This document shows, piece by piece, positions 12,073 through 64,000 of a stretch of 64,000 bases of DNA (positions are counted from its first letter, which is position 1; each line of letters begins with the position of its first letter). This DNA comes from Dehalococcoidia bacterium. Lineage in GTDB: Bacteria > Chloroflexota > Dehalococcoidia > Lucifugimonadales > CATQGZ01. Under the pieces are notes generated by a model that worked only from the letters and a program-made list of their open reading frames with translations, made no database searches and was not told where the DNA came from. The stretch is taken from assembly GCA_965223945.1 (NCBI GenBank), contig CBDCXW010000003.1:30841-94840 (forward strand), in the 5' to 3' direction. The translations under genes and the position numbers were made by a program.

Positions 12073-12450
12073 GCCTCAGTCAGCAAACCGGGATTAGACC
12101 ACACAGCCTAATCCCAGTAACGTGTTCCTCTACATTAACGTTAGGAAAGACCAATAGATTCGCAAAGGCAACAGTCCCGTGAGAGGACTGCCGGTGAGAT
12201 TCTAACCCATCGCCACAGCGGGTTCAAGCTGTTGGGTACCTCCAAAATCCCACACCTGCGACATAGGGTCTTCGCCCATCGGCCCCGTCAACAAGAGGCT
12301 ACGGCGACATTGGCAATGGCAATAAGCCTCACCCGCTTCGTAAAGACTTCCAGTAAAGACCTCGAACGGGGTGCCGCGTGTGTGAGGGTGTCCCTCACTT
12401 AGAAATCTTCCTCATTCTTCTCCCGAGAAGGTGAGTGGGACAGACGGACA

Positions 12451-12702
12451 GAGGCTTGACAAACAGAACGCCTGTCCGCATAATGGGAGCCAATCCAGGC
12501 GCCGAGGCTGAAGCCCGAACCCGGGAATGGGGAATGAGACAAATGGCACAAAATGAGGCAGTTTCCCAGAAGGTCGCGGCTCCGCCCCGAATAAACCGGC
12601 CCGGATTAGCTACGAATCTAGTGTCCCACAATCGTCCGAGTTCGTTCCTTATCCGTCCCAGAATCTCCGTTGCGTGTCCCGGAGGCGTCTCGCCGGTGTC
12701 AC
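12451..12702 (+). repeat. Non-coding element: sigma70 promoter with LexA-like box plus 11-bp-phased YGTCYC array (copy 1)
   Basis: TTGACA(12456)-17-CATAAT(12479) with AGAAC-GCCT-GTCCG; array units at about 12622, 12633, 12643, 12654, 12675, 12686, 12697; homologous to 46642-46877. Confidence 0.75.
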
Positions 12703-13027
12703 TCTCACCCCAGTCCTTCCCGCTCCAATGGACGGATGGAAGCCTCTTTTCCCTGTCGGGACCCACAGGACAGTGGGCGCGCGCCTGTCGCAATATTGCT
12801 GCGGGACCATCGCGTTTCTGCCGCATCTCTCTTGCAGAGGTGTCGAAAACCCGTTGACCAATTCTGAACCTCCAGCTATGGGGTCCCACAAAATGCAACA
12901 GTTTGCATCAATTTCGGCGAAACCCCAGGCACCCAGCTGGCTCGATCCAACCTTCATAGTACAGGTTTCGGCATGCTAAGATATGATTCGGCAGTATTCG
13001 AACGGACGAGAGACCCGGAAAACCGAC

Positions 13028-14227
13028 ATGGCCATATCCGCCTCTGAGAAACTGATCTACGTGGACCACGCCGCCACTACGCCGGTGCGTGAAGAGGTCC
13101 TGTCGGCGATGCTTCCCTACTTTTCAGGTGCGTTCGGCAATCCGTCGGGTCTGTACACCGTTGCGCAGGAGGCGCGCAAGGCTGTCGACGACTCCCGCGA
13201 GGCAGTTGCGCGGTGCCTGAGTGCCCGCATGAGCGAGGTCGTGTTCACCAGCGGCGGGACCGAGTCCGACAACGCCGCCGTAAAGGGCGTCGCCTTCGCG
13301 ATGCGGAACGTCGGCAAACACGTCATCACCACCGCCGTGGAGCACCACGCGGTCCTGCACGCATGCCACCAGCTGGAGCAGTTCGGCTTCGACGTCACAT
13401 ACCTTCCAGTGGATGAGTACGGCCTCGTGGACCCGGACGACGTCGGACGCGCGATCACAGATCAGACCGTGCTGGTAAGCGTGATGCTCGCCAACAACGA
13501 AATCGGCACAGTCCAGCCGATTTCCGACATATCGCGGGTCGTGAAGGCCGAGGCGGCCAGGCGCGGGCAGACGATCACCATGCACACAGACGCTGTACAG
13601 GGCGGCACCTTCCTGGACCTGGACGTCAAGGTCCTGGGAGTGGACATGCTCAGCCTCTCCGCGCACAAGTTCTACGGCCCAAAAGGGGTGGGGGCACTCT
13701 ACGTCCGACGCGGGACGCCGTTCGAGCCCCTGCAGATCGGCGGCGGACAGGAGCGACAGCGCCGATCAGGCACGGAGAACGTGCCGGGCATTGTCGGAAT
13801 GGCAGAGGCCCTGAGACTGGCGGCCGAAGACAGGGAGAGCGAGTCAAAGCGCTTGGCAGGCCTTCGAGATAAGATCGCAGCCGGGATAGGGCAGGCTGTA
13901 GAGGATGTCTACTTCAACGGTCACCCCACCCACCGGCTCCCGAACAATGTCAATGTCTCCTTCAAAGGCGTCGAGGGCGAGCCAGTGCTCCTCGGACTGG
14001 ACTTTGCCGGGATCAGCGCCTCCAGCGGCAGCGCCTGCTCGTCGGCCTCCCTGGAGCCCTCCCACGTATTGCTGGCGATCGGCAGGTCCGCTGACGTAGC
14101 GCAGGGAAGTCTCAGGATTACTCTCGGGCGTGACAACACCGAGGATGACGCCGACTATCTGCTCTCGGTGCTTCCGGAAATCGTTGGCAAGCTCCGGGCG
14201 ATGCCGTCACTCTCGGCTGTGGGGTAG
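13028..14227 (+). CDS. iscS: Cysteine desulfurase
   Basis: [37 protein letters not shown]. Confidence 0.93.
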
Positions 14228-15737: not shown

Positions 15738-16129
15738 CACCGGCAAGGTGCCTTCATGGCCTCATATGCAGTCTGCCACACCGCCTGTCCTGATCAGGCG
15801 GGTCTGGGGCAACTCTGAGTCTTGTATCCGCCTTCGGCGCTTGAGTACAATGCCGCCCGTGCATGCGGGGGTGGCCGTTTGACCGGTCGAGCGCTGTCTA
15901 ATCTCACGGTTGTCCCCGCCTTCGTCATTCCCGCGAAAGCGGGAATCCATCACCGGCAAGGTGCCCTCATGGCCTCATATGCAGTCTGCCGCGCTGCCTG
16001 TCCTGATCAGGCGGCGGATCTGGGGCATCTTTAGGCCTTGTATCCGCCTTCGGCGCTTGAGTACAATGCCGCCGAGTCTGCGGGGGTGGCCGTTTGACCG
16101 GTCGAGCGCTGTCTAATCTCACGGTTGTC
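15738..16129 (+). repeat. Diverged tandem duplication (~177 bp) of promoter plus first 12 codons of CoA-transferase, separated by a REP hairpin
   Basis: 15738-15914 vs 15951-16129; GTCATTCCCGCGAAAGCGGGAATCC between them. Confidence 0.9.
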
Positions 16130-19625: not shown

Positions 19626-20193
19626 CAGGGCAATCGCATTTTGACATTGGCTCGCCTTCGGTGAGCGAGCCGGAGACGGCGAGGTGAGGCAGTGCCTGGC
19701 GCTGCTCGACGGAAAATTCTCCAGATGTGTCTCACTTGTTATCATTTATGGTGATTTCATAGCTGGGCGTCGAGATTTGGCGAGACACTTGCGAGACGTT
19801 CGCGAGACACTTGTGAGACACCTGTGAGACAGTGTTGCCGACAGGTACGGTGATGGTCCAACCGCAGAGTACGCAGAGAGCGCAGAGAGAGCGTCGGTGG
19901 TTGGCATAGGGAGGACCGTAGCACATGTGTGCGGGTCTGTCAAATGTCTGAACTGTGATCGAGGACCGAGAACAGCCTCCATTGGGTCTTGGACATGGCC
20001 TTCGATGAGGACCGGAGCAGGGGTCAGGACTGGCAATGCGGACCAGAATTTGGCGGTCGTCAGGCATATGGCGGTGAACATGCTCAAACAGGAAACAACC
20101 GCAAAGGTCGGTATCAAGGCCAAGCGGAAGAAGGCCGGATGGGACTATGACTACTTGCTCAAGGACCTCTCTACTTAAAATGCGATTGCCCTG
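19626..20193 (+). mobile_element. Non-autonomous ISAs1-ended cassette with transposase 3' remnant and GAGAC array
   Basis: 17-bp perfect TIR CAGGGCAATCGCATTTT; 10-bp TSD GGTCCTGGTG (19616-19625, 20194-20203); remnant NLAVVRHMAVNMLKQE...KRKKAGWD.DYL. Confidence 0.88.
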
Positions 20194-23633: not shown

Positions 23634-23890
23634 GTCAAGGCGGCGCCCACGGCGCCGGTGTGTAGGGGGAGAAGTCACCCTCACCCCAGCCCTCTCCCGT
23701 CGAGGGAGAGGGGGTAAGAATCCCTTCTCGCCACACGATCGTCGTTGTGCCTCATCGTAGGGGCAGACCCTTGTGGCTGTCCCTGGCCGACATCCCCATC
23801 CTGGGCGCCCACAAGGGAAGAAAGTCACCCTCACCCCGGCCCCCGTATCGAGTACGGGGCAGGCCCTCTCCCGTCGAGGGAGAGGGGGTT
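23634..23890. repeat. REP cluster (GTAG-type hairpins, CCCTCACCC..CCTCTCCCGTCGAGGGAGAGGG, CCCCGTATCGAGTACGGGG)
   Basis: Multiple palindromes; related units at 25370-25533, 47855-48017, 52366-52384. Confidence 0.8.
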
Positions 23891-23895
23891 TGGGT

Positions 23896-25227
23896 TCAGA
23901 TCCATATCTTGAAGCCTCCTCTGGACACGGCGAAGGTCATGGCGAGGGCGTCGGCCTCGTCGGGCGAATCGCGCTTGCCGTCCTTGCTTTCGAGCGCTAT
24001 AGCCCCGCCGCGCGGATGGTGGCACCTCCGGGTGGACACCTGGGCGATGAGGGCGGGGTCGTCGTCGGTGTCGAGCGTTCCCTCCTCGTATCTGCTCTTC
24101 ATGGCCCACCAGGCCTCGGTGATGAGGTTGGCGAAGCGGTCGGGGTTCCTGGCCTTCTTGCCGCCGACGAAGGGCACGAGCCTGGTGTGGGGGAGTCGGA
24201 GCTGCCTGAGCCTGTCGACGACCCCTCCGCCGACGCCGGAGTCGTCGACAACGAGGGTGTCGACGCTGTGCCTGTCGCAGTAAGACTCGAGGAACTCGGC
24301 GGTGCTCATGGTGTCGCGGCCGCGCACCCTCCAGACGATTCTGGCGACCGGGCCCTGCCGCCTGACGACGACGGTCTTCGCCTGTCCGAAGCGGGATACG
24401 TCGCACGCGACGACCACGTCTCCCGCTGGCTGGAGGCTCCTCTCGGCTGCGCCGGTCGCGTGGCGGAGGGTGACGACGGCGTCGTCGAGGTTGTCCGGGA
24501 ACCTGCCGAGCACGCCGCCGACGTACATGGGGTCGTTCCGGCCCCAGTCGGCTTTGCGGTCGGTGACGTGGTCCGGGGCGACCATGCCAGGGACGGCGAG
24601 GCGGTCGGCGACGAGGTTGGGCGTGTCGCCCGCGCCGATCCTGACAGTGTCGTACATGTCCCGCTTCGAGTGGTGGGAGTCGTAGAAGGGTCCGGCCGAC
24701 ACGAGGGGGTTGCCGGTCATGAGGGTCAGAGCGGGATTGAGGCGTCTGAGGGCGTCGATGTCCGTCCCGGGGACGGCGTGGGCCTCGGTGACGACGACCA
24801 TCAGGTTGGGGGAGTGGAAGCCCTGGAGGTTGTAGGGGGAGCTGGTGGCGAATCCGATGGCGAAGGTCTGGTCATCGATTTCGTACCGGGAGGTCCGGAA
24901 GACGCGACTCCGCAGGCGGTGTGGGGCGCGTGCGTGGGCGGTCCTGATCTCCCTCCACAGGATGTCGTCGACCTGGCGCGTGGTCGGGCCGGTGACTATG
25001 GCCTTGGCGGGGGAGCGTGAGTGGAGCCACCAGAGGACGGCTCGTGCGGCGGCCCAGTCCTTGCCCGAGCCGTGGCATCCGACGACGGAGACTCGTCGGG
25101 ACCTGGCGACGGCGTTCAGGATGTCCGTCTGCTTGTGGTAGGGCTTCTCGGAGAGGGTATCGCGCACGAAGATGACGGGGTCCGTGTGGCCTTCGGGATC
25201 GGGGCGGGCCGTTTGGCTGCCGGGCAT
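23896..25227 (-). CDS. Phage terminase large subunit-like protein (orphan, atypical Walker B)
   Basis: Q motif, GCHGSGKD Walker A, GPTTRQV, QGFH, VVVTEAH, MTGNP, LGRFP, nuclease ACDVSRFG, VDDSGVGGGVVD, SPDEADA. Confidence 0.85.
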   Translation of the reverse strand: MPGSQTARPDPEGHTDPVIFVRDTLSEKPYHKQTDILNAVARSRRVSVVGCHGSGKDWAAARAVLWWLHSRSPAKAIVTGPTTRQVDDILWREIRTAHARAPHRLRSRVFRTSRYEIDDQTFAIGFATSSPYNLQGFHSPNLMVVVTEAHAVPGTDIDALRRLNPALTLMTGNPLVSAGPFYDSHHSKRDMYDTVRIGAGDTPNLVADRLAVPGMVAPDHVTDRKADWGRNDPMYVGGVLGRFPDNLDDAVVTLRHATGAAERSLQPAGDVVVACDVSRFGQAKTVVVRRQGPVARIVWRVRGRDTMSTAEFLESYCDRHSVDTLVVDDSGVGGGVVDRLRQLRLPHTRLVPFVGGKKARNPDRFANLITEAWWAMKSRYEEGTLDTDDDPALIAQVSTRRCHHPRGGAIALESKDGKRDSPDEADALAMTFAVSRGGFKIWI

Positions 25228-25298
25228 GTATTGAGCATCATCCCAACCTCGGTTTCGGGGCGTCTTGGAGCCCCTCGGGGTCCGTCCCTCTCGGGTGT

Positions 25299-25328
25299 AT
25301 TATACGAACGGATGTGCGTGGTTGTCAA
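25299..25328 (-). promoter_or_regulatory. Sigma70 promoter with LexA-type box for the terminase-like gene
   Basis: TTGACA-18-TATAAT on the minus strand; CGAAC-GGAT-GTGCG at 25305-25318 in the spacer. Confidence 0.8.
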
Positions 25329-25397
25329 GTGGCGCCCACGGCGCCGGTACGTAGGGGGCATGGAACAGTCACCCTCACCCCAACCCTCTCCCGTCAA

Positions 25398-25518
25398 GGG
25401 ACCTTTGCGTAACCTGCCGGACGAGGCGACATCGGGAGTTGTTGACGACACCACCCTGGCTAAACCCCCACCCTCTGGATACCGGCCTTCGCCGGTATGA
25501 CGGTTGTGCAAAGGTCTC
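25398..25518. mobile_element. ~121-bp MITE (family B) inside a REP loop
   Basis: TIR GRGACCTTTGC..AACC, GTCAA duplicated; copies at 32796-32918 and 47882-48003. Confidence 0.88.
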
Positions 25519-25519
25519 G

Positions 25520-26668
25520 TCAAGGGAGAGGGGGATCGGGACCGGCGGAGAGGAGGGCTAGCCCCTTCTTGTGGATCATTGCCGCTGTGTAGCCTGCCCT
25601 GGCTGCGGCCTTGTCGCCGTATATGTAGACGAGGGCGTTGTAGCCGTAGGTGTGCTGTCCGAAGGCGTCGTCGTCGGGGGGATCGGGGACCCGACAGCTC
25701 GGGCAGGGATCGGAGGGCTGGCAGGTATCGTCCTCGGAGTGGACGGCGGCCCTCTGAGCCTCTATCTGGTCGACTTTGTAGTCCAAGACAGCCTGGTTGG
25801 AGGCGCTCTTGGTCTCGTCGTCTCCGAATATGTGCACGAGGGCTTTGTGGCCGTACGTGTCGCGGTCGTACTCGTCTTCGCCGTAGATGGAGAAGTCGTA
25901 GGTGCGGTCTTCGGGGTACTCGAAGTGCGTCCACTCGGACTTCCACTTCCAGGTGGTCTCGGGCACCGGGTCGGCGCCCACGGCGCCGGTATGTGCGTCC
26001 GTGTCGCGGTAGGGGGCGGGCTGCGGCTTGGGCGCGTGGGCCGCGGGGTCGGGGCAGAGGGCTTTGACAACGTCGTAGCCCCGGTTGATGAGCACCTCCG
26101 CGGCCGAGAACCTGAAGTGCTGGTTGAAGCCTGTGCGTGTGCCCTGCATGACGTCGATGAAGAACCGTGCGATGTCTCTGCCGTCGTTGGTCTCCTGTTG
26201 GATGATGTCGGCGAGCTGCTGGGCGGCGGCATCCACGGCGGCGCCCACGGCGCCGGTGGGTAGGGGAGCGCCTTCGCGGGAACGACGGGGGGTGTTGTCT
26301 TCGGCGAGGGCTCGCGCCATCTTGGGGTTGATGATGGCGAGCTGACGCGTGGCCTCCATGCGGTGGCAGGGTTGGAAGTCGGGCAGCCGGCCCGTGACGG
26401 CGTTGATGAGGAACTGGGAGATGAGGTCTCCGCCGCGCGTGTGCTCTCGGACCATGCCGGTGAATTCGGGGCTAGAATCGAGCTTGATGAGCCGGTCGGA
26501 GGCCTGGAGCCGGTGGTGGGGCTTGAAGTCGGGGAGATCGCCGAGCATGGCCTGGGCGAGGAAGTCGACGATGAGCCTTCCGCCCTGGGTCTGCTCGTGG
26601 ACGATGTCGGCGAGTGATGGGCCGACGGCGCCGGTGTGTAGGGGTGCGGTCTGGGTTGCAGGAAACAT
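25520..26668 (-). CDS. Hypothetical protein with three tandem helical repeats resembling small-terminase-like domains
   Basis: Repeats xxxIVxExTxGGxxIxxFLxxxMxG...HRxxAxxxL (third ends LINRGY); second repeat type TYGxxALVxIxGD twice. Confidence 0.6.
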   Translation of the reverse strand: MFPATQTAPLHTGAVGPSLADIVHEQTQGGRLIVDFLAQAMLGDLPDFKPHHRLQASDRLIKLDSSPEFTGMVREHTRGGDLISQFLINAVTGRLPDFQPCHRMEATRQLAIINPKMARALAEDNTPRRSREGAPLPTGAVGAAVDAAAQQLADIIQQETNDGRDIARFFIDVMQGTRTGFNQHFRFSAAEVLINRGYDVVKALCPDPAAHAPKPQPAPYRDTDAHTGAVGADPVPETTWKWKSEWTHFEYPEDRTYDFSIYGEDEYDRDTYGHKALVHIFGDDETKSASNQAVLDYKVDQIEAQRAAVHSEDDTCQPSDPCPSCRVPDPPDDDAFGQHTYGYNALVYIYGDKAAARAGYTAAMIHKKGLALLSAGPDPPLP

Positions 26669-40937: not shown

Positions 40938-40945
40938 AGTCTTAG

Positions 40946-42658
40946 CCCGAATCCACCGATGCGGAGCGGCCTTGGGGTTGGAACAAGGGGTGAGGGCCGT
41001 GGGACGCGACGGTCCGCGCTCGATTCCGATAAATGGGGCCGGTGGCGGCCTTTGGTTGTCGTTGGGGGCGCCGATGGCGGTCCTGGGCAGCGGCGCTGGG
41101 GCGGGGTCGGCGGGACAGCATGCAGGGGAAGACAATCGCGGACCGGGCCGGTGCGACTCTGTGGGTCGGTTGGGTAGTCTGGTGGACGTGTCAGGCGCCG
41201 TCGGTGCCGTCAGGCAGGCAATGGCAGGGCTCGCAATCGAGCCAGGGCGCGAGTGAACTGGGTTTCCCAAGGCCAGCCCTGTGGCAGATGCAAAGTGAGG
41301 CGGCGGGCCGAGCGGGTGAGCCGTCCGGCCAGGGAGAAGAAGCGCCGCCGGAGGGTCTTGGTGGTCACCACCCCCTCGTCCAGACCGATGCGCGCGGTCC
41401 AGCGGGCCAGGTTATGGGCCAGCACCTGGACGGCCAGCCATGCGCCGTTGGCGGGGAAGCGGCCCGAGGGGAGATGGTTGAGGCCGACGCCGTGCTTGAG
41501 GTCTCGGATAGCATTCTCAATCTCGGCGTGGCGGCGATGGTCGGCCTCCAGTTCCAGGGTTTCCCCGTCCCGGTCGGTGATGAAGCCGTGATAGCTGTAG
41601 CTGGCGAAGAGGGCCAGTTGGGAACCGGGCGTGGGCTTCACCCGCCGGACGATGAGCCGCACTGGGGCGGCTTCGGGCTCACCCTGGAAGGGAGTGTAGG
41701 TGGTCTCGGCCACGTCGGCGCCGCCGTCCATCCAGTAGGGGACGGGCGTCCAGTCCTCCTCGGGAATCGCCTCAATCAACTCCCTGAGGCGGGCGTGTTG
41801 GCGGATGGTGATGGAGAAGCGGACATCCATCTTGCGGCAGACGACGACCAGGGCGTGGGCATAGAAGCCGCTGTCGGCCCGCACCGTGAGTTGTCCTGTA
41901 GCCCCAGCATGGCGCACCCGGCCCACGGTCTCCCGCAGGAAGTGGGCGGCGCCCCGAACGGTGTTGGCGCGGCCCTCGCGCAGCCGAGACATCAGCACGT
42001 CGCCGGTGCCGGCGGCGATGGCCAGCAGCGGGTGATAGCCCCGCTGGCCAGTGTAACCATGGTGACGCGCCCCCTCCTTGGCCAGTCCGTAGGTCTCGCA
42101 CATGGTGGAGTCCAAGTCGATGGTCAACGGCCCTTCGCCGGGTCCCGCACCAGCGGCCCAGGCCCGGGACAGCAACTCCCGGCTCACCCGATCCAACTGG
42201 CGGACGTGGCCCCACCGGAAGCTGCGCAGGAAAGTTCCCAGGGTGGATGGCGCCTTGACTACGCAGCCGATGGCGCCAGCTGTCCCGCCGGTACGCAACA
42301 CGTCGGCGTCGTCAATGAAGTCGCCCCCAGCCAGCGCCGAGGCCACCAGGGTCAGCATCTTGTCTCCTGGGTTCGCTCGCCCCGGCGCGTCTCCCAGGTC
42401 GACGTGGCTGTCGACGACTTCACGCAGGCCCAGGTGCTGGGCTAGGGTCACCGGGAGGAGCAGCCCAGCATTGGCCACCAGGCGGTGGTCGTCGAAGGCG
42501 ATACGGATGCGGTCGGGATGGTTGCGTGCTAGCATCTATCGGGTGCTCCTTGTTCTGGGGTCGGCTTTGCTGTTTCAAAACCATTATCCCAGATTCACAG
42601 GAGCACCCTCTTGCCGCTTCAGGACACTGACCCGACGCCCTCCTTCGGTGGATTCGGG
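40946..42658 (-). mobile_element. IS1380-family element, copy 1
   Basis: TIR CCCGAATCCACCGA; flanks CTTAG/CTAAG; 1713 bp. Confidence 0.93.
41210..42535 (-). CDS. IS1380 transposase
   Basis: APSTL, IDLDST, GYHPLL, VRADSGF, HAEIENAIRDLK. Confidence 0.93.
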   Translation of the reverse strand: MLARNHPDRIRIAFDDHRLVANAGLLLPVTLAQHLGLREVVDSHVDLGDAPGRANPGDKMLTLVASALAGGDFIDDADVLRTGGTAGAIGCVVKAPSTLGTFLRSFRWGHVRQLDRVSRELLSRAWAAGAGPGEGPLTIDLDSTMCETYGLAKEGARHHGYTGQRGYHPLLAIAAGTGDVLMSRLREGRANTVRGAAHFLRETVGRVRHAGATGQLTVRADSGFYAHALVVVCRKMDVRFSITIRQHARLRELIEAIPEEDWTPVPYWMDGGADVAETTYTPFQGEPEAAPVRLIVRRVKPTPGSQLALFASYSYHGFITDRDGETLELEADHRRHAEIENAIRDLKHGVGLNHLPSGRFPANGAWLAVQVLAHNLARWTARIGLDEGVVTTKTLRRRFFSLAGRLTRSARRLTLHLPQGWPWETQFTRALARLRALPLPA

Positions 42659-46641: not shown

Positions 46642-46877
46642 GAGGCTTGACGAACAGAACATAAGTCTGCATAATGAGAAGAGTCGCCCTAGACGCCGAG
46701 GCTGAAGCCCACACTCCGGCAATGGAAAATGAGACAGTTTCACAGAAAATCGCGGCCCCGCCCGAACAAACCCGCCCCGACTAGCTACAATCAGGTGTCT
46801 CGCATGTGTCTCGGAACTGTTTCACAACCGTCTCATAAGTGACTCATAGCTGTCTCGCAATTGTCTCTCGTGTCTCA
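46642..46877 (+). repeat. Non-coding element: promoter with LexA-like box plus 11-bp-phased TGTCTC array (copy 2)
   Basis: TTGACG(46647)-17-CATAAT(46670), AGAAC-ATAA-GTCTG; units at 46796, 46807, 46818, 46829, 46840, 46851, 46862, 46871. Confidence 0.8.
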
Positions 46878-46986
46878 CGGCCCTCTCCCGCCAAGGAGAG
46901 GGGGCAAAGGGGCAAGAGGCGGCCTTGACGCTTGACCCCGCCGACATATAATGAGGCGCATTCCCGCGTAGTCGAGGCCAACGTCC

Positions 46987-47774: not shown

Positions 47775-47881
47775 GAGGGTGTTTCGAGGACCTTCCCTAG
47801 TGGTAGGGAAATATCAGAGTCGAGGAGGGGTCGGTTCCCGACAGCTCTATCTTCACCCTCACCTCAATCCTCTCCCGTCAA

Positions 47882-48003
47882 GAGACCTTTGCGTAACCTA
47901 CCGGACGAGGCGACGTCGGGAGTTGTAAACGACACCATCCTAGCTAAGCCCCCACCCCTCTGGATACCGGCCTTCGCCGGTATGACGGTTGTGCAAAGGT
48001 CTC
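47882..48003. mobile_element. MITE family B inside a REP loop
   Basis: GAGACCTTTGC TIR, GTCAA duplicated. Confidence 0.88.
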
Positions 48004-48054
48004 GTCAAGGGAGAGGAGGCTCTGAGAGAACAACCCCTCGCAAACGCCTGTAAG

Positions 48055-49767
48055 CCCGAATCCACCGATGCGGAGCGGCCTTGGGGTTGGAACAAGGGGT
48101 GAGGGCCGTGGGACGCGACGGTCCGCGCTCGATTCCGATAAATGGGGCCGGTGGCGGCCTTTGGTTGTCGTTGGGGGCGCCGATGGCGGTCCTGGGCAGC
48201 GGCGCTGGGGCGGGGTCGGCGGGACAGCATGCAGGGGAAGACAATCGCGGACCGGGCCGGTGCGACTCTGTGGGTCGGTTGGGTAGTCTGGTGGACGTGT
48301 CAGGCGCCGTCGGTGCCGTCAGGCAGGCAATGGCAGGGCTCGCAATCGAGCCAGGGCGCGAGTGAACTGGGTTTCCCAAGGCCAGCCCTGTGGCAGATGC
48401 AAAGTGAGGCGGCGGGCCGAGCGGGTGAGCCGTCCGGCCAGGGAGAAGAAGCGCCGCCGGAGGGTCTTGGTGGTCACCACCCCCTCGTCCAGACCGATGC
48501 GCGCGGTCCAGCGGGCCAGGTTATGGGCCAGCACCTGGACGGCCAGCCATGCGCCGTTGGCGGGGAAGCGGCCCGAGGGGAGATGGTTGAGGCCGACGCC
48601 GTGCTTGAGGTCTCGGATAGCATTCTCAATCTCGGCGTGGCGGCGATGGTCGGCCTCCAGTTCCAGGGTTTCCCCGTCCCGGTCGGTGATGAAGCCGTGA
48701 TAGCTGTAGCTGGCGAAGAGGGCCAGTTGGGAACCGGGCGTGGGCTTCACCCGCCGGACGATGAGCCGCACTGGGGCGGCTTCGGGCTCACCCTGGAAGG
48801 GAGTGTAGGTGGTCTCGGCCACGTCGGCGCCGCCGTCCATCCAGTAGGGGACGGGCGTCCAGTCCTCCTCGGGAATCGCCTCAATCAACTCCCTGAGGCG
48901 GGCGTGTTGGCGGATGGTGATGGAGAAGCGGACATCCATCTTGCGGCAGACGACGACCAGGGCGTGGGCATAGAAGCCGCTGTCGGCCCGCACCGTGAGT
49001 TGTCCTGTAGCCCCAGCATGGCGCACCCGGCCCACGGTCTCCCGCAGGAAGTGGGCGGCGCCCCGAACGGTGTTGGCGCGGCCCTCGCGCAGCCGAGACA
49101 TCAGCACGTCGCCGGTGCCGGCGGCGATGGCCAGCAGCGGGTGATAGCCCCGCTGGCCAGTGTAACCATGGTGACGCGCCCCCTCCTTGGCCAGTCCGTA
49201 GGTCTCGCACATGGTGGAGTCCAAGTCGATGGTCAACGGCCCTTCGCCGGGTCCCGCACCAGCGGCCCAGGCCCGGGACAGCAACTCCCGGCTCACCCGA
49301 TCCAACTGGCGGACGTGGCCCCACCGGAAGCTGCGCAGGAAAGTTCCCAGGGTGGATGGCGCCTTGACTACGCAGCCGATGGCGCCAGCTGTCCCGCCGG
49401 TACGCAACACGTCGGCGTCGTCAATGAAGTCGCCCCCAGCCAGCGCCGAGGCCACCAGGGTCAGCATCTTGTCTCCTGGGTTCGCTCGCCCCGGCGCGTC
49501 TCCCAGGTCGACGTGGCTGTCGACGACTTCACGCAGGCCCAGGTGCTGGGCTAGGGTCACCGGGAGGAGCAGCCCAGCATTGGCCACCAGGCGGTGGTCG
49601 TCGAAGGCGATACGGATGCGGTCGGGATGGTTGCGTGCTAGCATCTATCGGGTGCTCCTTGTTCTGGGGTCGGCTTTGCTGTTTCAAAACCATTATCCCA
49701 GATTCACAGGGGCACCCTCTTGCCGCTTCAGGACACTGACCCGACGCCCTCCTTCGGTGGATTCGGG
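48055..49767 (-). mobile_element. IS1380-family element, copy 2
   Basis: Near-identical to copy 1; perfect TSD GTAAG. Confidence 0.95.
48319..49644 (-). CDS. IS1380 transposase
   Basis: Same protein as 41210-42535. Confidence 0.93.
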   Translation of the reverse strand: MLARNHPDRIRIAFDDHRLVANAGLLLPVTLAQHLGLREVVDSHVDLGDAPGRANPGDKMLTLVASALAGGDFIDDADVLRTGGTAGAIGCVVKAPSTLGTFLRSFRWGHVRQLDRVSRELLSRAWAAGAGPGEGPLTIDLDSTMCETYGLAKEGARHHGYTGQRGYHPLLAIAAGTGDVLMSRLREGRANTVRGAAHFLRETVGRVRHAGATGQLTVRADSGFYAHALVVVCRKMDVRFSITIRQHARLRELIEAIPEEDWTPVPYWMDGGADVAETTYTPFQGEPEAAPVRLIVRRVKPTPGSQLALFASYSYHGFITDRDGETLELEADHRRHAEIENAIRDLKHGVGLNHLPSGRFPANGAWLAVQVLAHNLARWTARIGLDEGVVTTKTLRRRFFSLAGRLTRSARRLTLHLPQGWPWETQFTRALARLRALPLPA

Positions 49768-49872: not shown

Positions 49873-49937
49873 CTGGATTCCGGCCTCCGCCGGAATGACG
49901 AACCGGAAACTGGATTCCGGCCTAAGCCGGAATGACG
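49873..49937. repeat. Two tandem CTGGATTCCGGC..GCCGGAATGACG REP hairpins (also 34783-34810, 15923-15948)
   Basis: Palindromes with shared flanks. Confidence 0.85.
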
Positions 49938-49950
49938 GACTGGAGAGGGC

Positions 49951-57859: not shown

Positions 57860-58257
57860 GGGCCCGAGGTTGCCGGGCGGCCGCCCCGACTCGTCGGGGA
57901 GGAAAGTCCGAGCTCCCCCCAGGCAGGATGCCCGCTAACGGCGGGGCGGGGTGACCCGACGGAAAGTGCCACAGAAACATACCGCCCTTCCATTTCGGGA
58001 GGGTAAGGGTGCAAAGGCGGGGTAAGAGCCCACCGCTCCGGTGGTGACATCGGAGGCCAGGCAAACCCCATCCGGAGCAAGGCCTAATAGCGGGACCATG
58101 GGCGCCTGGGCCCGTCCCCGGGTTGGCCGCACGACCCTTCCGGCAACGGGAGGGCTAGATAGATGGCCGCCGCCGGCCGGTTATCGGGACGAAGCCCAAC
58201 AGGTGTAAACCGTTGCCCGGTCCGGTACAGAACTCGGCTTACAGGCTGCCTCGGGCT
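57860..58257 (+). ncRNA. rnpB: RNase P RNA
   Basis: GAGGAAAGTCC, AGTGCCACAGAAA, GGTAAGAGC, GGAGCAA, ACAGAACTCGGCTTA; P1 pairing; TAGAAT upstream. Confidence 0.97.
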
Positions 58258-60828: not shown

Positions 60829-61002
60829 TGATTGAGGGAGCCTATATTGTGACTGTATGCACAATGTTGACAGATCGCGCCGCATGCTCCTAGACTGTCG
60901 CGTCTACGGCAGGAGATGCCGTCCCATCTACTTTTACGAATCGTGTTGCCGTCTGAGGCCCTGCGGTTCGCGGCCAACCAAGGCAGACCGTGAAAAGGGA
61001 GG

Positions 61003-62988
61003 ATGAACATGAAGAGACTGAGTAGCGCACCTATATTGATCGCCCTGTCGATGGTCCTGGTCTCTCTGGCCTGCTCGACCGAGACGGTTAAAGAGATACC
61101 CGTTGAGAAGATCGTGACCCAGGAGGTCGTGAAAGAGATACCCGTTGAGAGGGTGGTCGAGGTCGAAAAGGAGATCGTCAGGACCGTCGAGGTTGAAAAG
61201 CCCGTCGAAGTCATCAGAGAGGTGGTGAAGGAGGTCAGGGTTCCCGGCGAGACGGTGGTGGTCGAGGTTGAGAAGGAGGTCGTCAGGACAGTCGAGGTCG
61301 AAAAGGAGGTCGAAGTCGTCAGAACTGTCGAGGTCGACAGGCCGGTCATAAGGACCCAACTCGTCGTCGCCACTCCCACCGCTATGGCGATGATGTCCAA
61401 GGAAGGGACGATACCCGGCTCGAAGGTCGTCGTATCGCTGGAAACCATCGGCCAGCTTACTAAGGAGCCCAGGTCCCAGATCGCCCTGTACGGTTGTCGT
61501 CCCGGCTGCCTCGTCATCAAGGACGACTTCCTGTTGGTAGACGGCACGTATACCCTGCATCCTCATGTCATCAAGAGCTGGGAGTTCAGCGCTGACACGA
61601 CGAGCTGGACTATGGATATGCAGGAGGGCATTAAGTTCTGGGACGGGAGAGACGCCACAATAGATGACCTGATGTGGAGCATCTTCGATGGCCTCTACCA
61701 GATGGACTCAGCGCCTCTCACCGGGGAGAAGCTGGACGGACGCCCGCTCCGCTGGGGGGTTTCCGCACCTTGGATCGACGCCGTCTCCAGGGAGATCGTC
61801 GACGACGACACCATAGCGGTCCAGTTCCCCGGGCCCACGATCGGCCTCGCGGTCAACTCGCTGACCACGAGGGTCGATAGCGGCGGATTGCGGGATAGCA
61901 AGACGATCATTGAACAGGGGTGGAAGCATTTCCTGGAGAACCCCAACTTCACCGCCGCATACATGCCGACCAAGGAAGTGGCGCAGGAGATAAAGGAGTA
62001 CGAGGCCTGGCCGGACCACTGGAAGTGGCAGCCAGACTTCGAGGTACTGCACCTGTTGGAGGTGCCGGAATCCGCGACCAGGGTCGCCCAGCTGGCGGCG
62101 AAGCAGGCGGACATCGCGGCCATCTCCGCCGTGACCCTGCCCCAGGCGTTGAAGTTAGACCACGTTGGGATCATCGAGCAAAGTAACATATCGATGACCC
62201 AGCACTTCTTCGTCAACGTGTTCCGGCCGGAAGACCCGGGGTACAACAAGGACTGGCCGTTCAACGACATAAGAGTGCGTGAGGCCTTCAACATCGCCAT
62301 CGACCGGGACCTGATCATCGACAGGATCTACAACGGCCGGGTCGTCCGGCAGGATGCCCCCCTCCTAGGGCCCGGCACGCTCGGCTGGAACGAGCCGGAA
62401 GTCCAGGCAATGATAAACGACCCGATCCCTTACGATCCCGCCAGGGCCCGCCAGCTCCTCGAGGAAGCCAACTTCCCGATGGACAAGAAGCTGAAGATCG
62501 TCCAGGGCAACGTCGTGTTCGGCGGCGTGCCTGAGATGAAGGAACTCAACACGGCGATCCTCACTCAGTGGCGCCAAAACCTCGGTCTGGACGTAGAGCT
62601 CGTACTCGGCGACAGGGTCCAGCTATTCGGCCCGCACCGCAACGATAAGCAGGCGATCCCATACGACATATACGGCGGCGAGCAGCATGGGGTGAACCCG
62701 CTTGGGGCCTGGCCGGAGAACTTCTACAAGGACAACGGGTGGAACTTCTTCCTGCCGGCGAAGGACGAGCTGCTGGCGCTCTATACGGCAAAGCAGGACT
62801 CGCTTTACCCGGCCGAGGTTTCAAGGCTCTCCGCCCAGATCTCCAAGTTGGTGCGCGACCAGTGGATGTTCGTACCGATCACAGTCAACCCCCTCTTCTT
62901 CGGAAAGAACAGGGATACGGTCAAGGACTGGCCTCTGGCCCCCGTAAAGTGGCCGCAATACTTTGAGCAAATCACGGCAGTCAGGTAG
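61003..62988 (+). CDS. ABC substrate-binding lipoprotein family 5 with V/E/K repeat stalk
   Basis: Lipobox LAC, VEVEKEV repeats, DIRVREAFNIAIDR, YDPARARQLL. Confidence 0.9.
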   Translation: MNMKRLSSAPILIALSMVLVSLACSTETVKEIPVEKIVTQEVVKEIPVERVVEVEKEIVRTVEVEKPVEVIREVVKEVRVPGETVVVEVEKEVVRTVEVEKEVEVVRTVEVDRPVIRTQLVVATPTAMAMMSKEGTIPGSKVVVSLETIGQLTKEPRSQIALYGCRPGCLVIKDDFLLVDGTYTLHPHVIKSWEFSADTTSWTMDMQEGIKFWDGRDATIDDLMWSIFDGLYQMDSAPLTGEKLDGRPLRWGVSAPWIDAVSREIVDDDTIAVQFPGPTIGLAVNSLTTRVDSGGLRDSKTIIEQGWKHFLENPNFTAAYMPTKEVAQEIKEYEAWPDHWKWQPDFEVLHLLEVPESATRVAQLAAKQADIAAISAVTLPQALKLDHVGIIEQSNISMTQHFFVNVFRPEDPGYNKDWPFNDIRVREAFNIAIDRDLIIDRIYNGRVVRQDAPLLGPGTLGWNEPEVQAMINDPIPYDPARARQLLEEANFPMDKKLKIVQGNVVFGGVPEMKELNTAILTQWRQNLGLDVELVLGDRVQLFGPHRNDKQAIPYDIYGGEQHGVNPLGAWPENFYKDNGWNFFLPAKDELLALYTAKQDSLYPAEVSRLSAQISKLVRDQWMFVPITVNPLFFGKNRDTVKDWPLAPVKWPQYFEQITAVR

Positions 62989-63355
62989 GCTAACGTCCAC
63001 CTCGACCTGTCCGACATAGCTGAAACGAAGCTGCCTCTGTTCCCGGCTGCGAATGCCGGTGGACAGGGGCAGCTTTAGTGTAGGTGGACAGGGTGGATCC
63101 GCCGGTTGCCCGCGGTACCCGCAGCCGACGGACGGGAGGCCTCCCGTCCTCTATTTACGCCGGCACCAAGCCAAGCAGGGCGTACCGTGGTTGTCTGTGA
63201 AGAAGAGCACAATGTTGACAGGTTACGCCGACCGCTCCTAGACTTCGACCGTTCGGCTGTAAGAGACGCTGGCGACCTACTGCCCAAATCGTGCGGGCCG
63301 CCACAGGAACGTTGTCCACCCCCAAGTAAGTCAGACCGTGAGAGGGAGAGTAAAC

Positions 63356-64000
63356 GTGAAGAGACTGAGTAGCGCAACAACACTGATCGGACTGTCTATG
63401 GTCCTGGTCTTGATGGCCTGCTCCACCGAGACCGTCAGAGAGGTGCCTGTAGAAAAGATCGTGACCCAGGAGGTCGTCAGAGAGGTGCCTGTAGAAAAGA
63501 TCGTCGAGGTCGAAAAGGAAGTCGTCAGGACCGTCGAGATCGAAAAGCCCATTGAGGTCATCAAGGAGGTGGTGAAGGAGGTCGAGGTACCCGGCAAGAC
63601 TGTGGTGGTCGAGAAGCCGGTTATAACGACCCAGATCGTCGTCGCCACTCCGACCCCCGCTCCAATTGGGGCAGGGCCCTCAGGTACTCTGGTTGTTGCA
63701 GACGCCGACATAGCCTTCCCGAACATGATCCCATGCAAATTCGCATACAATCCCCAGCAAAACGTCCACCGATGGAGCGTCTTCGACACCGTCTACTACC
63801 ACGGCTTCGAAGAGCCCGGCATCAGCCTGATCGGCCTCGGAGAGTCGTGGTCTTACAACGCCGACCAGACGGTTCTCACTTGGAACACAAAGAAGGGCGT
63901 CGAGTTCGACGGGGGCTGGGGCGAAGTTACTGCCGAGGACTGGCAGTGGTCTTGGGACTCCCAGCACTGCGAAGGGTCGCTCCACTCGGGCATCTTCATC
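63356..64000 (+). CDS. Second family-5 binding lipoprotein paralog (partial)
   Basis: GTG start, near-identical leader KRLSSA..ACSTETV, V/E/K repeats, KKGVEFDGGWGEVTAED; open to the window end. Confidence 0.88.
   Translation, partial: MKRLSSATTLIGLSMVLVLMACSTETVREVPVEKIVTQEVVREVPVEKIVEVEKEVVRTVEIEKPIEVIKEVVKEVEVPGKTVVVEKPVITTQIVVATPTPAPIGAGPSGTLVVADADIAFPNMIPCKFAYNPQQNVHRWSVFDTVYYHGFEEPGISLIGLGESWSYNADQTVLTWNTKKGVEFDGGWGEVTAEDWQWSWDSQHCEGSLHSGIFI

Follow-up and report, generated by a model that had tools for sequence, protein, structure and literature searches.

In pac sites of the SPP1/SF6 type, sets of repeats span the promoter or promoters and the start of terS, the gene of the small terminase subunit (TerS), and in TerS rings the helix-turn-helix (HTH) domains of adjacent subunits are spaced by roughly one turn of B-DNA, which suggests wrapping of the DNA (both according to an extract of PMC4737164). 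Staphylococcus aureus pathogenicity islands (SaPIs) carry terS in an operon that is given as LexA-controlled in an excerpt of PMC5052747, and the R1 parC/ParR system, a type II centromere, is presented in a portion of PMC2241845 as two sets of short iterons around a promoter, to which a small, autoregulating DNA-binding protein binds cooperatively. Here we describe an element at positions 12451-12702 of a 64,000-nt stretch of DNA from a Dehalococcoidia bacterium (contig CBDCXW010000003.1), which is called the window below. We propose, with a probability of roughly 0.45, that this element is a pac/operator-type DNA array that would be bound by oligomers of TerS-like proteins, that has been orphaned from its gene and that now probably serves as a regulated promoter cassette.

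Phased or dispersed repeats of other kinds also bear on this comparison. The small winged-HTH phage proteins P2 Cox, 186 Apl and the Xis proteins of lambda and L5 act at five to seven direct repeats about one turn apart, where an oligomeric filament bends the DNA and represses a promoter. The iteron unit of parC is 11 bp, and TerS proteins of satellites act on chromosomal pseudo-pac sites. Pneumococcal BOX elements and the repetitive extragenic palindromes and mosaics known as REP/BIME are dispersed intergenic and modular sequences with a tandem middle module and self-complementary flanks, and they can affect the expression of their neighbors.

The preliminary description of this DNA had reported a dispersed non-coding element with ordered blocks in two copies, and every block that it named is present in both copies where it had been placed. 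Copy 1 (12451-12702) aligns end to end with copy 2 (46642-46877). It consists of a promoter, a leader, three "u" units of the form TG..(A/G)CA (12535-12541, 12544-12550 and 12554-12560), a 57-nt core that ends in TAGCTACGAATC and holds TAGCTAC (12607-12613, with AGCTA at 12608-12612), and an array of "d" units (Table 1). An iterated nhmmer search of the organism's own 4.02-Mb assembly (63% G+C) enlarges this pair to a family of 34 loci (family 1), 32 of them uninterrupted and 2 split by insertions of ~2.5 and ~1.3 kb, and adds 21 further matches to the family-1 promoter alone. The similarity among copies begins ~10 nt before the -35 hexamer, and nothing is in common further upstream. The copy 1 promoter matches the sigma-70 consensus at 11 of 12 positions, and shuffled sequence averages 0.4 such sites. 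A 140-aa frame is open across copy 1, and a coding reading of it was rejected; 1-nt indels between copies break the frame and no small open reading frame (ORF) is conserved, in agreement with the earlier judgment that the element has no convincing ORF.

The 11-nt phase of the d units is significant against shuffled sequence. Copy 1 has a lag-11 self-identity of 0.46, which 3/5000 dinucleotide shuffles reach, and copy 2 has one of 0.62, which 0/5000 reach. Across the genome, a strict scan finds 33 arrays at lag 11 (29 of them TGTY-type), one at lag 8 and none at lags 10, 13 or 14, with 14 and 20 at the codon-multiple lags 9 and 12. The seven to eight inverted hexamers first counted in each copy are partly recovered. 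Copy 1 has 8 positions in the 11-nt register when degenerate units (CGTCCG, CGTTCC) are included, whereas strict YGTCYC hexamers number 4 there (5 as YGTYYC; spacings 11, 21 and 32) and 6 in copy 2 (7 when relaxed; spacings 11, 22 and 9). Their inverted orientation is confirmed, since the units of the array and the TG..ACA units before it are reverse complements. Copy 2 retains a single TGAGACA unit owing to an 18-nt deletion.

Family-1 copies are old, with best pairwise identities of 68-90%. The parsed promoters of 31/34 loci keep TTGAC at -35 and the -10 hexamer, and because copies of this age still keep both hexamers and the operator half-sites described below, the promoters are under constraint. 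AGCTA is invariant in 32/32 aligned copies (alignment columns A115 G116 C117 T118 A119), and the 57-nt core is far better conserved than its flanks. This pattern could be read as that of a relic with an exapted promoter, in which array, u units and core are decaying, inactive leftovers of a dead TerS-like cassette and selection keeps only the promoter and operator to drive a neighboring host gene. The divergence of the copies, the degenerate array of copy 1 and the standing of promoter hexamers and operator half-sites as the best-kept parts apart from AGCTA all fit such a relic, as does the finding that 25/34 copies face a co-oriented gene within ~500 nt (assorted catabolic and metabolic enzymes; orientation was read from crude ORF calling filtered by third-position G+C). 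However, a relic accounts poorly for the AGCTA invariance and the conserved core, for the significant 11-nt phase that the arrays retain, and for a unit class that still matches the u units of its own copy, and the other 9/34 copies have a convergent gene or none ahead. We regard this explanation as unlikely.

Outside the genome, the family-1 core was sought as an exact pattern in 185,579 species genomes, with 0 matches; this pattern catches only 18/34 of the organism's own copies and so would miss divergent relatives. BLAST of an 86-nt core against 40 relatives gave one weak match, in the congener G002. G002 carries a single family-1-like copy alongside dozens of decayed ones of its own class, which means that copy number has shifted between the species. 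That difference, together with 34 dispersed and mostly intergenic loci that each bring their own promoter, might suggest a mobile non-autonomous element (a miniature inverted-repeat transposable element, MITE, or a remnant of an insertion sequence, IS), a stand-alone small RNA induced by SOS, or the RNA of a type I/III toxin-antitoxin system. The family-1 profile does not resemble that of a recently active MITE. Near-identical copies are lacking, with 90% as the maximum identity; no terminal inverted repeat or target-site duplication was seen in the flanks by inspection, no formal search for either having been made; and no transposase is associated with the element. The two split copies (C1:713114-715831 and C8:1220523-1222068) are targets of IS insertion rather than carriers. 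The small-RNA variants lack a conserved small ORF and an Rfam match, and the 11-nt period is unlike the 34-36-nt repeats of type III antitoxins. This group of explanations seems highly improbable. The ORF in the C1 insertion starts with MYKV.LYVRVRR, as does an ORF in the IS-rich stretch beside the TerS-like gene at C4:285812.

Tandem-repeat and motif scans for 11-nt TGTY-type arrays reveal other families in the genome that have this promoter type and the motif CAGCTAYGA(A/G)AT in common, and the shorter CAGCTAYGA occurs in them all. Their order differs from that of family 1 and runs promoter, leader, direct array, CAGCTAYGA, two or three inverted units, and GGAGAAAA.TTTCC... Together with family 1 they form a superfamily of at least 70 loci, which is the sum of family 1 and 36 loci found by a strict anchor (one of which looks spurious); a looser census of 101 loci probably contains chance matches of the relaxed anchor, and the strict count is used here. 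After the inverted units, the other families read as a decayed protein N-terminus (..NPTDFDTFGEKFSVEQREALPHLAVSDSLTGG..TNWVRV). These remnants align gap-free over 38 aa to intact TerS-like proteins, of which tblastn finds five paralogs of 133-148 aa in the genome.

The full module of promoter-operator, d array, CAGCTA(C/G)G.A(A/G)G and ATG lies directly upstream of three of the five paralogs (C5:117434, C4:196858 and C7:10160). The other two (C8:1008448 and C4:285812) have the array and an AGCTACG motif upstream without an operator-type promoter, and the TTGAC upstream of them sits in a REP-like repeat. In the intact layout, a sigma-70 promoter with a G.AC-N4-GT.C operator is followed by 5-9 TGTNNCA units (+4 bp) at 11-bp spacing and by the CAGCTAYGA motif, which contains the Shine-Dalgarno (SD) sequence; CAGCTACGAAAGGAG is the SD region in these genes. 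The ATG and first codons then coincide with three inverted units (AAT CCG ACA GAT, for instance, encodes NPTD). All superfamily copies trace to the 5' control region of TerS-like genes. The link to terminase-like genes, first suggested from shared promoter architecture, is much stronger than that: the array and AGCTA motif precede 5/5 of these genes, and remnants of the gene lie behind many copies. As in a pac site, the module is at the promoter and 5' end of all 5 intact genes, whereas copy 1, with an aminotransferase gene downstream, has no TerS-like gene behind its promoter and array.

Family 1 is a derived branch of this superfamily that is rearranged and gene-less. Its first half matches the promoter, SD and start of distant relatives (L095), and its second half matches leader plus array. 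Since equivalent units overlap the start codon in intact genes, the u units of copy 1 are probably a relic of the SD, ATG and first codons of a TerS-like gene. The same module occurs at four loci in metagenome-assembled genomes (MAGs) of Dehalococcoidia (L062, L064, L065 and L067). There a promoter with G.AC-N4-GT.C leads into a direct array, CAGCTAGGAG and, across the ATG, three inverted units. The units at these loci belong to the classes GGAACA, GCAACA and GAGACA. More distant marine relatives (L092, L095) have a promoter, AGCTATGAAA and three tandem units over the start with no clear upstream array, which suggests that tandem units at the start came first and that the inverted array was added later. 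Because the three u units differ in reading frame or lie in part before the ATG, they are a nucleic-acid signal rather than a protein repeat. A family-4 query gave only short matches in the genomes G001-G003, all in G001. The leaders were also considered as coding sequence and this was rejected; frames from an ATG 7 nt after the -10 hexamer are intact in only about half of family-2 copies and are not protein-like.

Several searches point to small terminases as the relatives of the linked proteins. All 5 paralogs match PHROG terminase-small-subunit families (4.8e-10 to 1e-4), and in Pfam they match HTH_Tnp_1_2 (5.5e-7, above the cut-off for one protein) and, weakly, Sf6_terminase (1.4e-5). An AlphaFold 2 model predicts a three-helix HTH domain (helices 14-48) followed by two long helices (50-136), with a confidence (pLDDT) of 81.8. 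Foldseek ranks phBC6A51 (2AO9, E 0.03) first and then the NV1 and Sf6 small terminases (7JOQ and 3HEF; E ~1, up to 1.2), all of which are weak matches. With an N-terminal HTH domain, a helical core in the predicted structure and TerS profile matches, the linked genes would qualify as terminase small subunits. In a profile search, the TerS-like family takes in 12,499 representative clusters with an E-value threshold of 1e-3, a number that falls to 1,582 when the threshold is 1e-10. Its occurrence in the class is sporadic (1/150 other sampled genomes), and close relatives number 16 loci in 12 Dehalococcoidia MAGs.

The gene neighborhoods of the paralogs differ. Behind the paralog at C4:285812, after IS21-type and other transposase insertions, there is a large terminase gene (454 aa, phrog_2, 6e-31) and a portal gene (Pfam 6.2e-73) that is broken by an internal TAG, and more transposases follow. 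This segment (C4:285812-295000, L170) is a degraded phage-type packaging module. The Pfam large-terminase (TerL) families PF03237, PF03354 and PF20441 have no match anywhere in the genome. At three other loci the stop of the TerS-like gene is overlapped by a small partner ORF (Table 1), which is conserved at all three, looks helical or coiled-coil by eye at its N-terminus, and has no Pfam or PHROG match. No integrase, replication or capsid-remodeling genes accompany the TerS-like cassettes; one cassette has a possible recombinase two genes downstream. Elsewhere on the same contig, at C4:267550-269850 (L169 9553-11845, minus strand), genes for a prohead serine protease (Peptidase_S78) and for a major capsid protein of the HK97 type (492 aa) stand as a lone pair next to the gene for ribosomal protein L25, with no portal or terminase beside them, and this pair may be an island or an encapsulin-like remnant.

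The two sets of units co-vary. The array unit differs among copies (GTGTCGCATAA, GTGTCCAGCAA, TGTTCCATATC..., GTGTCTCAC...), and the upstream TG..ACA units are its reverse complement in each copy. Duplexes between u and d units of the same copy have an energy of -27.2 kcal/mol, compared with -23.0 kcal/mol across copies, and 0/10,000 permutations reach the own-copy value. In the u3:d1 helix, 171/224 cells are Watson-Crick (76%), and the two central pairs vary as GC12/CG8/AU3 and GC10/AU7/GU3. The imperfect pairing of this helix, with mismatches that resemble neutral transitions, is also what decay of a relic would produce.

Such compensatory variation is what an RNA hairpin would leave. In this model, 5' untranslated units (UGUNNCAU) are antisense to a triplicated start region (AUGNNACA), and a three-helix fold with an 11-nt period buries the AUG, holds the SD in its apical loop and sets the translation of the TerS-like protein. 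An orphan copy would be a leader or non-coding RNA with u3-d1 self-pairing around the 57-nt core that modulates the downstream mRNA or pairs in trans with TerS-like mRNAs of the same class. The units do lie between promoter and ATG with the start codon included, and the u units are nucleotide repeats in differing frames, as the model expects. On the four intact MAG loci, RNAalifold predicts three 6-bp helices with 17 pairs, and minimum free energy (MFE) folds of L064, L065 and L067 show a start-region hairpin that matches the model exactly. Metatranscriptome contigs include low-depth pieces over 12424-12800 and one contig with the core and array of another copy, and no cover was seen over 12172-12423; such contigs give presence in RNA libraries only, not starts, strand or level, and DNA carry-over is possible.

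Other properties fit an RNA less well. Mismatches between u and d units show no strand-specific G-U excess, with A-C 21 versus G-U 15 in family 1, 22 versus 15 at the strict-anchor loci, and 4 versus 4 at the four intact MAG loci; because there is no such excess, wobble asymmetry cannot separate RNA and DNA models. RNAalifold finds 0 pairs in the 32-copy family-1 alignment. Among 10 intact 5' regions, only L065 and L067 have clearly negative MFE z-scores, and on both strands, while the remaining 8 are unremarkable with the sense strand no better. At the gathering threshold the sole Rfam match in the window is RNase P, with nothing at the element, and relaxing the cut-off to E 10 over 12400-12800 brings no more than two meaningless lncRNA matches. 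The d units outnumber the u units two- to three-fold, and L092 and L095 keep three u units without a clear d array, so something other than pairing must read the u units there. The hairpin also leaves the invariant AGCTA in its loop unexplained. We regard the hairpin as the main rival and consider it somewhat unlikely as the main explanation, although the two models are not mutually exclusive.

The promoter named a LexA-box promoter at the outset is a genuine sigma-70-type promoter with a box that is only LexA-like. The consensus of the Gram-positive-type (Cheo-type) LexA box is CGAACRNRYGTTYC, and its strict core is absent from both window copies, which read GAAC-GCCT-GTCC and GAAC-ATAA-GTCT. 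The family-1 operator consensus is GAAC-N4-GTCC, and other families have GCAC-N4-GTGC or GTAC-N4-GTAC. Among the 31 parsed family-1 promoters, half-sites are kept while N4 varies, with GAAC in 24, GTCC in 18 and GTTC in 8. The boxes upstream of the organism's own recA (GAAC-GCAT-GTTT) and lexA (GAAC-AGAT-GTAT) are also imperfect against this core, and a relaxed LexA site is still compatible with the element for that reason. SOS control of the element promoters through LexA is plausible on this comparison of sites. At C1:124540-124830 (L038 1040-1330), a family-4-type element ends in TGGGTACGCGTGAG directly before the LexA-like box and promoter of recA. The same 14-nt motif closes many copies of families 2, 4 and 5 and occurs ~15 nt upstream of some family-3 promoters; it marks a sharply defined boundary and is possibly a cleavage or recombination site.

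A mechanism for the proposed DNA site can be outlined from these features. Units one helical turn apart would present the same face of the duplex, so that TerS-like subunits assembled into a ring or filament might bind them cooperatively through their HTH domains and wrap the DNA. The subunit counts of TerS rings are comparable to the 5-9 direct units. The direct array and inverted units could play the roles of SPP1 pacL and pacR, with the invariant AGCTA between the two sets as a candidate point of action, and the unit classes GAGACA, GGAACA, GCAACA/GCGACA and GGACAC would correspond to different TerS-like paralogs. In copy 1 the gene is gone and the order is rearranged to u units, core and d array, with promoter, operator, AGCTA and phased array kept. 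The gene behind copy 1 encodes a class-V aminotransferase (Pfam Aminotran_5; 12983-14227) and starts 280 bp downstream of the element. No second promoter or terminator was found between 12484 and this gene, and no intrinsic terminator after the array of either window copy. Because nothing of this kind intervenes, which a relic with an exapted promoter would also predict, copy 1 may be a stress-regulated promoter cassette that reads through its array and a family-3 remnant into the aminotransferase gene. Its array would remain open to occupation in trans by the TerS-like paralog that matches it, and could then act as a roadblock or for titration.

The pac/operator-type reading is reasonable because the module adjoins TerS-like genes, one of which is upstream of terminase and portal remnants, and because SPP1 offers a precedent. 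A DNA site also fits better than an RNA helix, because AGCTA is invariant in gene-less copies, mismatches are symmetric, d units are in excess and the recognition helix tracks the unit class. Its start is GRTT with GGAACA twice, GRAT with GAGACA twice, and NRTT or DRST with GCAACA, a link that comes from 6-8 loci and may only mirror shared ancestry. The DNA-site model would explain the 11-bp phase, the direct-unit excess, AGCTA and the mismatch spectrum, and also the class structure if the paralogs differ in specificity.

Several observations weigh against this reading. The u/d complementarity includes the ATG, with double changes in 6/17 of the pairs predicted at the MAG loci, as a hairpin predicts. 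The arrays at C8:1008448 and C4:285812 (GTGTCCAG) match their own u units (TCCGACA) poorly, which troubles the hairpin as well. The exact GAAC-N4-GTTC core is present in only 3/31 parsed family-1 promoters, and 9 family-1 copies have a convergent gene or none ahead. The TerS assignment depends on profile and fold matches that are weak, and a TerS-like protein used as tblastn query has no match among 50,697 phage records. Only 1/5 of the intact paralogs is beside terminase and portal genes, and three pair with a small ORF of no matched family among housekeeping genes. Inverted units are ill-suited to a single rotationally symmetric ring, and the DNA-binding domains of SF6 TerS are reported to bind pac DNA with little sequence specificity (PMC4737164).

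Table 1. Positions of the element's parts and of related features (window coordinates unless a contig is named)
Feature	Position	Strand	Details
Copy 1, sigma-70-type promoter GAGGCTTGAC	12456..12484	+	TTGACA 12456-12461, 17-nt spacer, CATAAT 12479-12484
Copy 1, operator-like motif	12466..12477	+	GAAC-GCCT-GTCC (LexA/Cheo-like, one mismatch), in promoter spacer
Copy 1, block CGCCGAGGCTGAAGCCC	12500-12516		
Copy 1, variable leader	12500..12532	+	two short hairpin-like blocks, GGCTGAAGCC and CCCGGGAATGGGG; sequence differs among copies
Copy 1, three u units	12533..12561	+	TGAGACA, TGGCACA, TGAGGCA; spacing 9-10 nt
Copy 1, 57-nt conserved core	12562..12618	+	ends in TAGCTACGAATC; includes CAGAA..TCGCGGC
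Copy 1, array of ~8 d units	12620..12702	+	11-nt spacing, TGTCCCA-type, several degenerate; reverse complements of u units
Subfamily-specific tail GTCACTCTCACCCCAG...	12703..12735	+	in common with a separate REP-like repeat family
Family-3 remnant, promoter-less superfamily member	12780..12925	+	d-type array, AGCTAT 12874-12879, u units TCCCACA/TGCAACA, then TTTCGGCGAAACC
Family-4 complete element	19650..19960	-	promoter TTGACA..GCAC-ACAT-GTGC..TACGGT, 5 x GTGTCTC(A/G)C units, CCCAGCTATGAAATC, u unit GTGAGACAC
Copy 2, family 1	46642..46877	+	promoter 46647-46675, one u unit, core with AGCTAC 46783-46788, array 46796-46877 (GTCTC-type)
Overlapping partner ORF at stop of three TerS-like genes (97-114 aa)	C5:117832-118125, C4:197253-197564, C7:10603-10947		L057, L060, L061

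The window contains two further members of the superfamily. The family-3 remnant was assigned by comparison with other family-3 copies of the genome, and since it lies directly behind copy 1, the region between copy 1 and the aminotransferase gene is a composite of two elements. The family-4 element ends in a decayed TerS N-terminal remnant (..FSVEQRQALPHLAVSGSLTEG..) with a short open frame. The same promoter type (TTGACAACCACGCACATCCGTTCGTATAAT) is found at 25299-25328 on the minus strand, before a 443-aa ORF (23899-25227, minus strand) that, like a neighboring 382-aa ORF, has no Pfam match. A second promoter lies behind copy 2 at 46925-46952. Tails of the form GGCGTCTCGCCGGnGTCACnCTCACCCC occur in several family-1 copies. 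REP-like palindromic repeat families, for example CTGGATWCCGGCCT.CGCCGGWATGACGG and GTCACCCTCACCCCAGCCCTCTCCCGTCRAGGGAGAGGG, are present at 23636-26644, 34783, 47846-48022 and 49873-49944, and the first half of GTCACCCTCACCCCAGCCCTCTCCCGTCRAGGGAGAGGG is in common with the tail of some family-1 copies.

Other repeats and one structured RNA in the window are separate from the element. Two 300-nt stretches 7.1 kb apart (40944-41243 and 48053-48352) are 100% identical and are probably parts of a duplicated mobile element. An apparently non-coding tandem duplication of ~215 nt at 15738-16129 gives three consecutive repeat pairs with 90-95% identity. Two related genes or segments at 60996-63655 contain internal repeats of 36 to 105 nt, which code for units rich in (V/I)E(V/K)E, and are presumably the repeat protein mentioned in the preliminary description; no link between them and the element was seen. 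A bacterial class A RNase P RNA is at 57865-58257 on the plus strand (277.7 bits). PhoB/OmpR-type direct-repeat boxes, DnaA boxes, CsrA GGA sites, Rho utilization (rut) sites, T-box leaders and ribozymes were set aside on account of variable unit classes or poorly fitting motifs.

If the arrays are bound by TerS-like paralogs, they would be the clearest sequence-defined, helically phased site for ring wrapping by small terminases, and how those proteins read DNA is still debated. In a lineage of uncultured symbionts, such sites would have escaped their genes and spread as regulatory or packaging signals next to at least 34 host genes, and class-specific arrays with their paralogs would provide a handle on TerS-DNA specificity and on possible directed gene transfer in sponge microbiomes. 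A bolder form of this idea is that the chromosome of this sponge-associated lineage has some 70-100 genuine pac-type entry sites, each a stress-inducible promoter with a phased array that is read by one of several paralog-specific small terminases. Headful packaging would begin at these sites upon SOS induction, or when a helper phage or a particle resembling a gene transfer agent infects, and would take along adjacent and mostly catabolic host genes. This would amount to a built-in multi-origin transduction system with class-specific arrays as address labels, and we think it quite improbable. Should the RNA model hold, the locus would instead be an unusual translational operator made of tandem anti-start-codon repeats. 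Under either model, these loci should not be annotated as genes or as CRISPR-like arrays.

No description of such elements was found in the literature covered, which did not extend to subscription journals and supplements. The nearest likeness is to the SPP1/SF6 pac site (pacL-pacC-pacR), in that arrays separate the promoter from the ATG and the first codons of the TerS-like genes fall within inverted units. This likeness concerns the position of the repeats and the HTH spacing, not the spacing or orientation of repeats. Several properties set the element apart from the phage site. With 5-9 units at 11 bp, its arrays are far longer and more regular; the direct and inverted sets complement each other and co-vary; most copies (copy 1 included) are without terS and scattered over at least 70 chromosomal loci; and just 1/5 of the intact genes adjoins terL and a portal gene. 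The SaPIs and other phage-inducible chromosomal islands, in which terS is under LexA without its own terL (as stated in an excerpt of PMC5052747), resemble three of the five genes, each of which forms a cassette with a second gene, has a LexA-like operator and has no terL in its vicinity. However, integrase, replication and capsid-remodeling genes are absent from these cassettes, and the operator of the element is only LexA-like.

A centromere reading finds no support. The direct-repeat sets of R1 parC flank its promoter, whereas here the sets are inverted and both are downstream of the promoter; the neighboring protein is HTH/TerS-like and not a ribbon-helix-helix ParR, and there are dozens of chromosomal copies. 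Partition genes, ParM-like ones included, were not noticed beside any copy, although no search was aimed at ParM or ParR. The Cox, Apl and Xis operators differ in lying at att or switch regions rather than at the start of terS, and they have neither an inverted co-varying set nor orphan dispersal. BOX and REP elements have units of 35-60 nt, do not include a promoter-operator and are not derived from the 5' end of a gene. The parts of the element are of known kinds, namely pac/operator-type repeats, a LexA-like promoter and dispersed intergenic repeats. What appears to be new is the combination of a co-varying inverted set, 11-bp arrays of several classes tied to TerS-like paralogs, and at least 70 mostly gene-less copies.

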